Shown one piece after another: positions 20,978 through 25,730 of a stretch of DNA of 35,908 bases. The stretch's first letter is position 1. Each line of letters opens with the position of its first letter. The notes beneath the pieces were generated by a model that was not told where the DNA came from, ran no database searches, and was given only the letters and a program-made list of their open reading frames with translations. Source of the DNA: a virus. Lineage: Duplodnaviria; Caudoviricetes. The position numbers and the translations under genes were made by a program. The DNA is taken from positions 1 to 35,908 of IMG/VR virus record IMGVR_UViG_3300017589_000136; one strand, given 5' to 3'.

Positions 20978-22321
20978 GTGCCGACGGCCGCCGCTGCTCC
21001 CCAGAAGCTATACGAGCCGTGCCCCTGCTGTGGGGGTGCTTTGCCATTCGCCGAAGGGGCAATACCACCAGACGCGGATGCTGCCCTGCGTAGGGAGGTT
21101 GAGCGTATAATTGTGGAGGTTTACAAGGGGACAAACGCTGTTGTGGACGTGCCCCTTTTCAAAATTGTAGGAGCGTTACTGGAGGGGGGCGTTGTTAAGG
21201 GCTATGGGAAACCGCTTGCTCAGGTAGACTTTGACACCCCAGATGCAGAAATGCTCCACCGCCTCACACGCGATACCTGGCACTTTGCAGCGGCAAAGAA
21301 CTACCAGCACATGCGAGACCTTACCCTTGCGCTGGTGGATGAAAACGGCAAGGCGCGCTCCTTTGGAGATTTTGCCGAGGCGGCTAATGCCGTAAGCGAA
21401 AAGTACAACCGAGGGTGGCTGCTTACGGAGTATAACAGCGCCGTTGGTTCCGCTACGATGGCGGCTCGCTGGGTGGACTTTAAGAAAAACGAAAAAACCA
21501 TGCCTTACCTGCAGTACCAAACGGTGGGCGATGACCGGGTAAGGGACTCCCATCAAGCGCTTGACGGCGTTATCCGAAAAATGGCCGACGGGTTTTGGGA
21601 TACGCACTACCCGCCAAACGGCTGGGGCTGCCGCTGCGACGTGCTACAGCTGGCCACCAGCATGGCTAAGGAAACCGAGAGCATTCCAGACGTTCCCGTA
21701 AACCCGCTGTTTCGCACTAACCTTGCAAAAACGGGGCTAGTATACCCTAAGAACCACCCATACTACGAGGGCGTGCCCTTTGAAGTCCTCCGTAAGGCGG
21801 TTGCCTACCTACCTCCCGATGCCGGGTATAAGCGCTGTAAGGCGGGTAACACAATGGTCGATGTTCACCTGCTACACTTTAAGGGTAACGAGCAGGGGGT
21901 GGCAGAGTTGACTAGGCACCTAAGCGTATGCAACGAGCTTAGTAAGTTGGGCTATAAAGATTTTAAGCTACTGCCAGACATCCACGAAAAAGACATTGCA
22001 ATCAAGCCCCGCTTTTACCCCAAAGGTTACAAACCGACAAATATCAAAAAGAACCCTGACTGCTGGATGCGTAGCGCAAAGGGTGAGGACATGGTTTGTG
22101 ACTTCAAGGTGCTGGAGGGTAGCGGTCGTAACTTTTCAACGCGTCTCAAAGAGGCAGCAGAGCAGGCAAATTACGCAGTAATTAAGGTAACGCACGAGCA
22201 CGAGGACAGCGTTGATAGGATTAAAGGGAAGATTGGCAAGGGGCTTGGTAGCTACGAATCACTACGCGGTGTAATTGTGCTCGATGGCGGTGGAGCACTG
22301 CTGTGCGAGGGCTTTAAATAA
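20978..22321 (+). CDS. MuF (gp30) minor head protein with C-terminal CdiA-like PD-(D/E)xK toxin domain
   Basis: MuF core YQTVGDDRVRDSH...PPNGWGCRC; C-terminal extension with KNPD...DFK and EAAEQA. Confidence 0.85.
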   Translation: MPTAAAAPQKLYEPCPCCGGALPFAEGAIPPDADAALRREVERIIVEVYKGTNAVVDVPLFKIVGALLEGGVVKGYGKPLAQVDFDTPDAEMLHRLTRDTWHFAAAKNYQHMRDLTLALVDENGKARSFGDFAEAANAVSEKYNRGWLLTEYNSAVGSATMAARWVDFKKNEKTMPYLQYQTVGDDRVRDSHQALDGVIRKMADGFWDTHYPPNGWGCRCDVLQLATSMAKETESIPDVPVNPLFRTNLAKTGLVYPKNHPYYEGVPFEVLRKAVAYLPPDAGYKRCKAGNTMVDVHLLHFKGNEQGVAELTRHLSVCNELSKLGYKDFKLLPDIHEKDIAIKPRFYPKGYKPTNIKKNPDCWMRSAKGEDMVCDFKVLEGSGRNFSTRLKEAAEQANYAVIKVTHEHEDSVDRIKGKIGKGLGSYESLRGVIVLDGGGALLCEGFK

Positions 22322-22385
22322 AAAAGCAACGAGCGTAAAACCGAAGTCTTAGCGCTCGCTGGGTCGCCCGTCTCGCAAGACCGGC
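22318..22385 (-). ncRNA. Candidate small RNA convergent with the MuF-toxin gene
   Basis: Two hairpins; the long one has a C(UUCG)G loop and two G-U pairs only on the - strand and is followed by a U-tract; consensus promoter directly upstream. Confidence 0.68.
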
Positions 22386-22388
22386 ATA

Positions 22389-22396
22389 CAAATATA
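22389..22396 (-). promoter_or_regulatory. -7 promoter element for the candidate sRNA
   Basis: TATATTTG on the - strand is a perfect TAnnTTTG match. Confidence 0.68.
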
Positions 22397-22435
22397 CGGT
22401 AAACCGCTTAAAAAGATGCAACAAACTGTAAAAAA

Positions 22436-24304
22436 ATGAATGGACAGGCAAAAGTTCAGCTTATTCTTGAGCTAAAGAACAGGCTTAAAACGGGGCTTTC
22501 CGAGGCAAAGCAACGGGTTTGCTCCACCGTGGACGAGATGAAGGGTAAGTTAGGCTCCCTAAAAGGCTCGTGGAAGAGCGGCCTTGGCTCCTTCGATGGC
22601 CTTATGGGTAAAGTTTCCTCCCTAAAGTTAGGCCACTCAAAGGCTTTTCAAGCGATGAAAAGCGAAGTGCCAGGACTTGGGAACGCAATAGGGCTGCTCA
22701 CAAACCCCTACGCCCTTGCTACGGCAGCAGCGGTAGCACTTGGGGCTGCCGGGTTAAAGGCCGCGTCCTGGTCTAACGAATGGGCCACCAACATGGCTAA
22801 GGTAAACGTTACCGCTCAGCTTTCCCATAAGGAGCTGGACGCACTTTCGCAAAAGCTCGTAACGATTGGGGAGCGGAACGTTACCCCGCTGGAGGAGGTG
22901 CCGCAAGCATTCAACCGAATTATATCGGCGGGGCTTGACGTTAACACCTCGCTCAAGGTGTTGGAGCCAACCCTTAGGGCTTCAAAGGCGGGTTTTGCCG
23001 ATCTCGAAACCGTGGCCGCGGCGGGGGTGGGTGTAATGGCCTCTTCCGGCGAGGATATAACGCGCGTTTACGACATTCTTTTCGCTACCCTAAATAAGGG
23101 TAACGCTGAGTTTAACGACATCGCGCAGTATCTTCCTAAAATTGTCCCCCTCGCCAAGGGTGCTGGTTTTGCCCTTGACGAAACAGCAGGGGCATGGGCC
23201 TTTCTAACGGCGCAGGGGCAAAAGGCGGAGCAGGCTACCACCGGCATAATGAATATGGTAAAGGCCTTTTCCACCAAGGATATTGTAAAGAACCTTGAAG
23301 CCAGCAACATCAAGGTATTCGACAAAGGGAAGATTATGCCAATTGTCTCCATTGTAGAGCAGCTGTCCGGTAAAATGGCCAAGCTGTCCGATAAGGGGAA
23401 AATGAACTTTTTGGATTCCATTGGGCTAAGGGACATGGAGGCAAAGGGGGCAATCCTATCCATGGTGCAGAACGTCGGCAAGCTAAAGGAAGTAACAAGC
23501 GCTACAGCCAATAGCGCAGGAGCGCTTGGGCAAGCTTACGAGAATGCGAAGACTCCGCTTGACGAGTGGAAAATAGTGGTAAACAACCTAAAGGGTTCGG
23601 TTATGAAGCCCATAGGTGACTTTCTCCTTCGCATCGCCAGCAGCGTTGGAAAGTGGGTGCTATCAATAGTTAACTACTTTAAAACGCTCTACCGAGAGTC
23701 AGCGCTATTCCGCGATATACTTTCCGGCATTGGGTTAGCCATTTCAGTGTCGTTTAAAGCGATTACTATGCCCATTAGGTTGGTGGTAAACCTTGTAAAG
23801 CACCTGTTCTCCCTCTTTAAAAATTCTAAAATTGGCGGATGGATTGAGAAAATGTATCTTAAAATTAGGCCTTACATAAAGTGGTTGACCAACATTTTAG
23901 GCCAGGTTGCGAGCATTCTCTACAAGTTTTTAACGGCCGATTTTAAGGGGGCTTGGAATGGGGTAAAGTCGTTTAAGATAACCAGTATTGAGGAGATAAA
24001 GAAAAGCCAAATCAGGGAGCAGCAGGATATGGCTAAGGAGGAAAAAGACCCCTTTTCTGCCAACGAAGGCTCGCCGACAGCCAACGCTAACGCCGACGGC
24101 ACCAAGCTAAACGACACAACTGATAAGATTACGGATAGGGGGCAAGCGCCGCGCAGCATAACGATCAACATTGACAGCTTTGTGAAGGGGGGCATCAATA
24201 CCCAAAACACCTCCATGCAGAAAATGGACGCGCGGGAGTTGGAGGCCTTTTTCCGCGACATGCTGCTGCGCACCATTGCCAACGTTCAAACCTCATACCA
24301 GTAG
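22436..24304 (+). CDS. Tail tape measure protein
   Basis: TP901-type core (MAKVNVTAQL, DILFATLNKG, QGQKAEQATT), hydrophobic helices, C-terminal RSITINIDS. Confidence 0.88.
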   Translation: MNGQAKVQLILELKNRLKTGLSEAKQRVCSTVDEMKGKLGSLKGSWKSGLGSFDGLMGKVSSLKLGHSKAFQAMKSEVPGLGNAIGLLTNPYALATAAAVALGAAGLKAASWSNEWATNMAKVNVTAQLSHKELDALSQKLVTIGERNVTPLEEVPQAFNRIISAGLDVNTSLKVLEPTLRASKAGFADLETVAAAGVGVMASSGEDITRVYDILFATLNKGNAEFNDIAQYLPKIVPLAKGAGFALDETAGAWAFLTAQGQKAEQATTGIMNMVKAFSTKDIVKNLEASNIKVFDKGKIMPIVSIVEQLSGKMAKLSDKGKMNFLDSIGLRDMEAKGAILSMVQNVGKLKEVTSATANSAGALGQAYENAKTPLDEWKIVVNNLKGSVMKPIGDFLLRIASSVGKWVLSIVNYFKTLYRESALFRDILSGIGLAISVSFKAITMPIRLVVNLVKHLFSLFKNSKIGGWIEKMYLKIRPYIKWLTNILGQVASILYKFLTADFKGAWNGVKSFKITSIEEIKKSQIREQQDMAKEEKDPFSANEGSPTANANADGTKLNDTTDKITDRGQAPRSITINIDSFVKGGINTQNTSMQKMDARELEAFFRDMLLRTIANVQTSYQ

Positions 24305-24883: not shown

Positions 24884-25444
24884 ATGGAAATTGTATATAA
24901 AAAAATCGTTGAAACATTCAACGCCCACCCGGAAGTGTTTACAAGCAGGGGGCTCCCTGTAGTTCGACAAATTGACCTGAACATTGGGCAACCCGACGAC
25001 CCCGAAAATTTCGAGGTATTTTGCCCCGCCATGTTTATATCGTGGAGCATTCGACCGGGAACGGGGGGCGAGTCTGACACCTTAACGCTAGACTTTCACT
25101 TGCTGCAAGAGCCGACAGCCAACACCGAAAACTTTAGCAACGTTGCCGTTGTTGGTGTTGAATACATTAAGCTAATGGAGGCAGTTAAATACCTTTTAAA
25201 CGACCTTAAAACGAGCGCTACCACGCCGCTAAGGTATGCAGGAGAGCAGCCAGCGGTTACACCATACTTTCGCTACCACGTTGTTAGCTATACGTGCAGC
25301 ATTGATGCCTACACCGATAGCATTCACAAGCCAGCGCTTGGTGAAGGGCAGCTGAGCGGAATAGTGTTAAAGGAGGGGAAATTGAGGGAAAAACAGGATA
25401 GTCCTAAAGTGGCTGCGCTGGAGGTTGACACCTATAGCCGCTAG
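24884..25444 (+). CDS. Putative tail terminator / neck protein (gp37-like)
   Basis: IDLNIGQ...PAMFI pattern; follows gpG. Confidence 0.6.
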   Translation: MEIVYKKIVETFNAHPEVFTSRGLPVVRQIDLNIGQPDDPENFEVFCPAMFISWSIRPGTGGESDTLTLDFHLLQEPTANTENFSNVAVVGVEYIKLMEAVKYLLNDLKTSATTPLRYAGEQPAVTPYFRYHVVSYTCSIDAYTDSIHKPALGEGQLSGIVLKEGKLREKQDSPKVAALEVDTYSR

Positions 25445-25662
25445 AATAGCGTGGCCTGTCTCGGCTGAGCATCTAGCTTGCAAAGTTCGCGCTTGGCCGG
25501 TGCAGAAAGGTAGTTGTAAAAGGTGCGCTTGCTAATGCGGTAGGCTGGGTGAATAAGGTTGAAAAACACCCACTCCTGCGACACTCCGCGGTTTGTGTAC
25601 GATAGGGTGGTGGTTTGTATGTCTATTATACGTTGCAGCCGGTTGCGTTGTGTGTAAGCCAT
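25441..25662 (-). CDS. Small HTH protein, putative late-gene activator (Mor/C analogue)
   Basis: YRISKRTFYNYL HTH-like motif; last leftward gene before the late genes; ends in QATLF. Confidence 0.62.
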   Translation of the reverse strand: MAYTQRNRLQRIIDIQTTTLSYTNRGVSQEWVFFNLIHPAYRISKRTFYNYLSAPAKRELCKLDAQPRQATLF

Positions 25663-25678
25663 CTCCCTAAGATTTATG

Positions 25679-25686
25679 CAAATATA
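25679..25686 (-). promoter_or_regulatory. -7 promoter element for the HTH gene
   Basis: TATATTTG on the - strand, 16 bp before the ATG. Confidence 0.62.
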
Positions 25687-25691
25687 AACAC

Positions 25692-25730
25692 AACAGCCGT
25701 GACTTTTCAAAAAATCACGGCTGTTTTTTT
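25692..25730. terminator. Intrinsic terminator, possibly bidirectional
   Basis: 11-bp stem AACAGCCGTGA/TCACGGCTGTT with a T-run on +; just past the stop of the T9SS gene. Confidence 0.75.

Follow-up and report, generated by a model that had tools for sequence, protein, structure and literature searches.

Background

Phage polymorphic toxins in which a MuF head-protein domain is fused to a C-terminal toxin have been surveyed before, and the accessible parts of that survey give a small immunity open reading frame (ORF) as their usual companion (Jamet et al. 2017, PMC5576092). Here we describe a muF gene from the tailed-phage record IMGVR_UViG_3300017589_000136 (35,908 nt; this whole stretch of DNA is called the window), which shares the fusion of MuF to a C-terminal toxin but has, instead of the immunity ORF, a predicted gene for a structured small RNA convergent to muF. 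Sequence comparison places this RNA in a small-RNA gene family that is real, conserved, apparently absent from catalogues and linked to MuF tails of nuclease type, and that most likely represents RNA immunity. In our preferred reading, to which we give a probability of roughly 0.6, the RNA is a trans-acting antitoxin that binds the MuF tail as a decoy of the tRNA acceptor end.

Several described systems resemble the locus in part. Type III toxin-antitoxin systems (ToxIN, AbiQ, CptIN, TenpIN, AbiF/RCd22), as presented in the sections available to us, combine an RNase-type toxin with a structured inhibitory non-coding RNA for which direct binding is proposed; their RNAs lie upstream, are co-transcribed and repeat-built and serve toxins of the ToxN or AbiF families, and some of these systems are located in prophages (10.1101/2025.04.15.648962). 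The MuF-linked RNA, in contrast, is encoded downstream in convergent orientation under a predicted promoter of its own, forms a single unit when linked, and has as partners PD-(D/E)xK, LPD3 or PBECR2 tails that are part of a virion protein. It would work like a type III antitoxin, yet it misses three defining features, namely the toxin family (Pfam and structure searches gave no ToxN/AbiQ/CptN/TenpN or AbiF family match for MuF or its tail), upstream co-transcription and repeats. Type I systems share with the locus a convergent RNA complementary to the toxin mRNA, but the type I toxin is usually a small hydrophobic peptide, and here it would be a 447-aa virion protein with a nuclease tail. Polymorphic toxin systems also possess protein orphan-immunity arrays, which are toxin-free, tandem and composed of variant forms; toxin-free tandem modules, presumably protective, recur here as ~110-nt promoter-plus-RNA units.

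The best profile and structure match of the MuF tail is CdiA-CT of Burkholderia pseudomallei 1026b (4G6V), with aligned catalytic D, D and K. That toxin is delivered by contact-dependent growth inhibition and blocked by the protein CdiI; its identity to the MuF tail, whose tRNase activity is a prediction, is ~22%. According to the portion of the source at hand, it cleaves tRNA-Ala within the acceptor stem and CdiI blocks its active site (PMC9086364). The DUF3800, drum and skipping-rope motifs are likewise terminator-ended RNAs tied to one protein family and present in several unrelated shapes per family, but their proteins differ, and the MuF-linked RNA has no Rfam match (Weinberg 2017, PMC5737381, available in part).

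The RNA is undescribed in those parts of the literature that our search covered, among them 10.64898/2026.08.28.747851 and 10.64898/2026.09.22.753630; few subscription papers were included, and the supplements of Weinberg 2017 and of bioRxiv papers, which might list such a motif, were outside its scope. Passages found in the Minerva preprint and the BECR preprint do not mention it, and a study of Streptococcus pyogenes small RNAs, as far as its text was available, removed prophage candidates and is hence uninformative (PMC3675131). MuF fusions to a Bp1026b-like tRNase (MuF-cd13442) are on record, including those of Bacteroidetes and Streptococcus (PMC5576092, in the parts seen), so that MuF-toxin fusions were known before; the convergent RNA, the tRNA-like hairpin ends and the toxin-free arrays are apparently new.

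Results

A predicted convergent unit in the gap behind muF

The minus strand behind muF holds the following elements, given by window coordinates:

22389..22396, minus strand: -7 promoter box TATATTTG of Bacteroidota type, read from the sequence; the same box lies 30-115 nt past the stop in 57/59 PD-(D/E)xK-tailed homologs of the pooled loci described below
22320..22385, minus strand: predicted ~66-nt small RNA convergent to muF, on the basis of fold stability and a covariance model
22366..22385, minus strand: hairpin 1, GCCGGUCU-UGCG-AGACGGGC, with 3 bp, a 1x1 internal loop, 4 bp and a UGCG tetraloop; putative mimic of a tRNA acceptor end
22362..22365, minus strand: single-stranded linker GACC, its CC beginning 11 nt past the tetraloop
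22320..22361, minus strand: hairpin 2 (22361-22327; 15 bp, C(UUCG)G loop, two G-U pairs) with U6 (22325-22320); predicted intrinsic terminator

The first-pass annotation, a reading of the letters alone, had seen in the 114-bp gap between the MuF stop and the tape measure gene (22322-22435) a minus-strand unit of box, two hairpins, C(UUCG)G loop, two G-U pairs and U-tract, and every one of these elements is in place; calling them a transcription unit is still a prediction. Its view that the structure is strand-specific also holds, as the 71 nt of the minus strand fold with -30.7 kcal/mol (z -3.93, 0/200 shuffles equally stable) and those of the plus strand with -20.3 kcal/mol (z -1.40, 18/200 shuffles), the corresponding z values of hairpin 2 with U6 being -4.94 and -0.99. 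U6 overlaps the TAA stop codon of muF, and the RNA is complementary to the 3' intercistronic mRNA and to this stop codon. A generic terminator scan made no call at hairpin 2 and the U-tract. The covariance model described below matched the window once, that is, a single unit without tandem repeat. Rfam gave 0 matches above the gathering threshold in the window and 20 homolog loci; the best weak match, TD-1 (20.8 bits against a threshold of 64.5, E 0.2), was rejected.

The sequence TAnnTTTG, which we take to be the Bacteroidota-type -7 promoter consensus, occurs 23 times in the window, where 27 occurrences would be expected (~3% for any single-strand stretch of 86 nt). Because the box alone is not rare, TATATTTG counts by its conserved position. 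A second TATATTTG box lies at 25679-25686 on the minus strand, inside the start of a small ORF (25441-25710).

A small immunity ORF downstream of MuF is absent, as had been claimed: the gap has no plus-strand ATG ORF of at least 25 aa, and the next gene encodes 622 aa. An ORF of 45 codons with a TTG start does span the gap on the minus strand (22314-22451). It could in principle encode a peptide antitoxin, a reading that we consider hardly credible and have rejected, as homologous gaps contain indels of varied length and vary by base pairs and not by codons; the start of the ORF lies upstream of the box, and no matching ORF was found in the ten Bacteroidota loci examined.

Linkage of the box to nuclease tails

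Two sets of loci were scored for a convergent box 30-115 nt downstream of the muF stop. Set 1 consisted of 81 viral loci (9 duplicate or truncated loci, 1 without a MuF motif and 2 distant matches were dropped), in which 8 tails lacking a fitting Pfam match were classed by eye; set 2 consisted of 77 of 80 GTDB loci, a few loci being common to both sets. Dereplication of the pooled sets at 70% within class left 111 of 158 loci, with 11 set-2 tails classed by eye or by weak match.

In set 1 the box was present behind 36/36 PD-(D/E)xK, 9/9 LPD3 and 2/4 PBECR2 tails, and behind 0/9 non-nuclease, 2/22 short and 0/1 unclear tails. The corresponding figures of set 2 were 39/41 for profile-positive tails (the two box-less loci have one-mismatch boxes and hairpins), 0/11 for short and 17/25 for other tails. 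After pooling, the convergent box was present behind 76 of 83 nuclease tails, as against 1 of 27 tails that are short or of non-nuclease type (1/21 and 0/6, respectively; Fisher p 9e-18, with related rows). The first-pass annotation had named occurrence behind toxin-less muF genes as the mark of a plain terminator; the element does not follow such genes. On a FastTree of the MuF core the tail state changed 15 times, and among 8 independent tree pairs the box followed the tail in a mean of 6.6 and opposed it in none (median p 0.016, range 0.016-0.06). In cultured phages whose MuF tail is of the papain or zincin type, a small ORF takes the place of the RNA, and phage Mu has no gap behind muF.

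The RNA is absent behind papain-tail MuFs, namely in Bacteroides phage p00 (L330:3097-3396) and at four further loci (L068, L072, L079, L091). Phage p00 carries there a convergent ORF of ~99 aa, apparently with similar convergent genes at the other four, which makes this gene a candidate protein immunity gene oriented like the RNA. Of 18 LPD3 tails, 16 are followed by the convergent box and by an RNA with one closing stem, an arrangement that points to an RNase function of LPD3, a family of unassigned function in Pfam. The cultured Elizabethkingia phage TCUEAP3 combines a CdiA_C-like tail with a covariance-model match of 32.8 bits (L328:2688-2768). Cultured bacteria among the carriers include Bacteroides neonati (L186), Limibacterium fermenti (L140) and Acetobacteroides.

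Structure and covariation of the RNA

A MAFFT alignment of 21 CdiA_C-linked units, picked for similarity and including that of the window, had 80% of cells paired and double changes in 20/25 pairs; its pairing or covariation score was matched by 0/500 shuffles, and slid controls were 37-53% paired. After fitting to the model, which biases the result towards the model, 25/25 pairs covaried. The covariance model built from these 21 homologs scored the window copy at 57 bits and gave 32 matches in 80 GTDB loci and the window, none of them on the plus strand or away from the muF end. A first DNA pattern search had returned 39 loci, mostly by chance, the 4 clear ones being all MuF-CdiA_C.

The typical unit follows this layout: the box, 4 nt, a pairing G, 3-4 bp, a 1x1 loop, 4 bp, a UNCG-type loop, a linker, a long stem and a U-tract. 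The linker has 3-5 nt and contains CC in the typical unit, and its unpaired columns are conserved at 1.03 bits against ~0.6 for either hairpin. A free 5' hairpin occurs in 40/57 PD-(D/E)xK units and in 1/17 LPD3 units, the latter having one closing stem instead. RNAs behind PBECR2 tails share GGA(A/U)AACCGC..CUGAAC..GGAGCGAC-like motifs inside a closing stem (three loci), one of them, L058, having apparently two tandem units, the sole linked tandem case. A search with the PBECR2-type pattern gave 6 loci, of which 5, representing 3 distinct proteins, follow such tails and the sixth is a chance match. Each tail family (CdiA_C, LPD3, PBECR2) would accordingly have its own RNA shape. The conserved convergent promoter and covarying stems, for which the first-pass annotation had suggested a test, are borne out by the box and by covariation; the link of shape to tail family fell short of significance when independent pairs were compared (median p 0.06).

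An alternative is that a chance box accompanies a plain terminator or structural spacer, or that a selfish repeat of small size spreads in Bacteroidota. In its favour are the commonness of TAnnTTTG, orphan copies in host DNA and the 40 bits that the model gives to a probable ordinary terminator (L216), which we treated as a false positive of the model and not as a family member. We regard this explanation as improbable and rejected the plain terminator, since box and structure track nuclease tails; hairpin 1 covaries and begins 4 nt past the box, and the plus strand lacks a U-tract. Moreover, 150 other Bacteroidia genomes gave no model match at E<=1e-4 (strict filters, 30 candidates scored per genome), so the RNA is not a common host repeat.

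Toxin-free copies and arrays

The pattern of hairpin 1 plus box was found at 9 viral loci, all MuF-CdiA_C-linked, and at 44 metagenomic loci, of which 6 were linked, 15 toxin-free with a model match and 23 without a model match; toxin-free means here that the fetched flanks contained no CdiA_C-like ORF, a few contigs giving only ~300 nt of flank. At ten of the 15 toxin-free loci there are 2-4 units, and almost every unit has a box of its own. The metagenomic orphans come down to ~7 independent contexts, beside insertion sequences or phage-like genes or between housekeeping genes, and an eighth was found in the genome G002. There, a satellite-like element has an RNA copy behind its capsid gene (G002:C24:77202-77286; loci L215, L272, L273). 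This copy shares an identical hairpin 1 with the toxin prophage that lies on another contig of the genome, but differs from it in hairpin 2. The element encodes an integrase, a methylase/helicase, a capsid, a Clp protease and a tape measure protein; no terminase, portal or MuF was found between 60 and 89 kb. In a separate prophage at ~8-23 kb the MuF is short and the RNA absent.

The tandem arrays (eight loci or groups of loci, such as L239/L267 and L231/L233/L257) contain 2-4 units at ~105-155 nt spacing, and in the four-unit arrays the 9-bp and the 8-bp, window-like hairpin 1 alternate. A c4-2 RNA (RF02944, 61 bits) lies near a three-unit array (L248:754-829). Another orphan RNA (L251/L264/L230) is 85% identical over 152 nt to the phage-linked L221, including a few toxin-end codons, and is located between tilS-like and TonB-receptor-like genes, both named by eye, beside a cobalamin-riboswitch-like leader.

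The strongest case for trans action comes from the copies that have no cis target, even if these might instead be remnants or might pair with the mRNA of an incoming phage. They bear at once on a type I-like mode, in which the RNA or its transcription would pair or interfere with the late mRNA behind muF and lower leaky toxin. Such cis-antisense action would agree with the convergent orientation kept in all linked cases, with the full complementarity of the RNA to the muF-to-next-gene mRNA, and with the 37/57 cases in which at least 5 nt of the 3' stem are antisense to the stop codon or the codons just before it. On the other hand it has no cis target at toxin-free copies and arrays, complementarity requires neither conserved linker letters nor tail-specific shapes, and the element is absent from non-nuclease toxins. 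UNCG-type tetraloops are poor starters of RNA pairing, and apart from such loops just 3-5 nt of the RNA are single-stranded. All this makes the cis-antisense mode unlikely in our view. The first-pass annotation had favoured a protein-binding or tRNA-decoy mode in trans on the ground that the RNA barely overlaps the coding sequence. The mode gains from the toxin-free arrays and the tRNA-like hairpin ends, but the original argument is weak: antisense action is compatible with a small overlap, since the whole RNA is complementary to the part of the late mRNA that runs from muF to the tape measure gene.

Likeness of hairpin 1 to tRNA ends

Among the 44 units that possess a 5' hairpin, CC lies within 5 nt of it in 29, and 18 of the 44 show the exact N-CC form. 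The CC starts 11 nt past the tetraloop in 12/30 tetraloop cases, which is the modal spacing and that of the window copy. As reference we used the 46 distinct tRNA genes of one host genome (G001), in which U73 occurs only in tRNA-Cys (ACC-U), tRNA-Thr (GGC-U) and tRNA-Gly (CGC-U). The N-CC hairpins ended in a host tRNA 4-mer in 14/18 cases (null mean 6.1, reached in 0/20,000 draws), and 11 of 14 U-type ends matched Cys, Thr or Gly (null mean 4.3, 0/20,000 draws). Hairpin 1 with its linker is, from these sequence matches, a putative imitation of a tRNA acceptor end.

Family-specific shapes, tRNA-like ends and tight linkage would be explained equally if the RNA were a partner or cargo of the tail (in a ribonucleoprotein that is either packaged into the head or active after injection), or a decoy for host anti-phage tRNases. 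RNA binding by the inactive PBECR tail of phage Mu has been proposed in the part of Iyer 2017 available to us (PMC5512222); phage Mu, however, has the gapless arrangement mentioned above. Protein-free copies in arrays and between host housekeeping genes suit protection better than a cofactor, and the nuclease tails have no protein immunity gene, from which it follows that some other restraint must exist. We therefore hold the partner or cargo role to be a little less likely still than cis-antisense action.

The MuF gene, its tail and the operon

The protein-coding features at the locus are:

20978..22321, plus strand: MuF minor head protein, 447 aa (PF04233, E 8e-18 at aa 142-222; neighbours by Pfam and PHROG)
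21875..22318, plus strand: C-terminal PD-(D/E)xK domain of the CdiA_C / Bp1026b-like tRNase type, ~aa 300-447, predicted by PF18451, profile and structure model
22436..24304, plus strand: tape-measure-like gene, 622 aa, next in the late operon (PF10145, E 2e-27)

The 35.9-kb record has a Mu-like gene set, and the nearest relatives of its MuF are in Bacteroidota prophages. The MuF domain lies in the phage head module, after terminase and portal, as is required of a MuF polymorphic toxin; by Pfam and PHROG the rightward operon consists of terminase (17731), adaptor, portal, MuF, the tape-measure-like gene and neck. A minus-strand gene elsewhere on the phage (25747-26616) encodes a C-terminal sorting domain (PF18962) of the type IX secretion system.

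C-terminal domains vary among MuF homologs (CdiA_C, LPD3, PBECR2, ART, zincin-like, papain or no tail). The KNPD..DFK residues ascribed earlier to the C-terminal domain were found at 358-377, and the view of this domain as PD-(D/E)xK and tRNase-like was corroborated by Pfam, family profile and structure comparison. PF18451 (CdiA_C) matches the tail at E 1e-4 to 5e-4, close homologs passing the curated cut-off (L015, 29.5 bits), and a profile of 32 tails matches PDB 4G6V at E 8e-5. Modelling of the C-terminus, as had been suggested, gave a structure with pLDDT 94.6, for which 4g6v_A, the CdiA-CT Bp1026b tRNase, was the top Foldseek match (E 4e-4, TM 0.60) and the sole one under E 0.001. D361, D375 and K391 align to its D214, D223 and K242, while the counterpart of E187 was not placed; the two acidic active-site columns hold D or E in 32/32 tail rows. 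The tail is on these grounds a predicted tRNA-cutting nuclease. The tail profile retrieved 2540 clusters at E<=1e-3, with a MuF part in 92 of the 149 top matches examined; tail-only searches found no viral contig and no GenBank phage.

Streptococcus phages

MuF tails of the Streptococcus phages P9 (L325:790-911) and SMP (L326) match the same tail profile, and both loci have a convergent TATAAT promoter (TTGATA-17-TATAAT in P9) with a long stem overlapping the stop. Among relatives of P9, 17/18 keep this layout, some with compensatory changes, the exception being a fragment that matches the last 26 residues only. The convergent promoter of P9 overlaps the start of an annotated small ORF. In the Streptococcus units, including those at L334-L350, the RNA has a long closing stem and its interior is conserved. 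The model of the Bacteroidota RNA (R1) does not match the Streptococcus RNA, and the folds differ.

Discussion

Anatomy, conservation, linkage and orphan copies are features of the sequences themselves; from them we infer expression of the RNA, toxicity of the tail, their binding, the substrate and delivery by the virion. In the proposed mechanism the host-sigma promoter would make the RNA constitutively while the late operon is silent, and the small RNA would inhibit the nuclease tail in trans as a substrate mimic, hairpin 1 with N-CC occupying its active site. A lysogen or producer cell would be shielded from MuF made inside it or delivered by a virion, cells or elements with orphan arrays would be protected likewise, and each tail family would carry its own RNA shape.

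Several observations weigh against the decoy antitoxin. The test of tRNA ends was post hoc and used the tRNAs of one host only; collapsed to distinct 4-mers the match is 6/10, with related rows, the exact N-CC form is confined to 18 of the 44 hairpins, and the window copy (GGC-GA-CCCA, 8-bp subtype) has no exact tRNA end. The window tail misses the curated PF18451 cut-off (20.5-22.6 bits against 26.6), and the K391 column is lysine in only 8/32 tail rows. Presence of the box and presence of a gap are partly confounded and not independent, because short muF genes mostly abut the next gene; the nuclease status of LPD3 is our own inference, and the link of shape to tail family is not significant. 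The strictly kept convergent position and the antisense stretch of the 3' stem would suit cis action as well. Finally, the orphans are few in independent contexts, some are on short contigs, and they could be remnants.

A broader picture seems possible to us at somewhat less than even odds, namely that virion-borne RNase effectors with RNA immunity are widespread, at least in Bacteroidota and Bacillota, with a small decoy RNA for each tail family that in the CdiA_C case mimics the tRNA acceptor, and that hosts, satellites and other elements gather promoter-bearing tandem arrays as acquired RNA-only immunity. If true, it would explain how many MuF nuclease toxins without an immunity protein are restrained, and RNases of the PD-(D/E)xK and probably the BECR type would join the ToxN and AbiF families as targets of RNA antitoxins. 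A decoy of a tRNA end of ~65 nt would be an added type of inhibitor, and toxin-free arrays would amount to RNA-only acquired immunity against phage effectors. The role of MuF tails in infection would then become directly testable, the ends of the decoys predicting the tRNAs that each toxin cuts.

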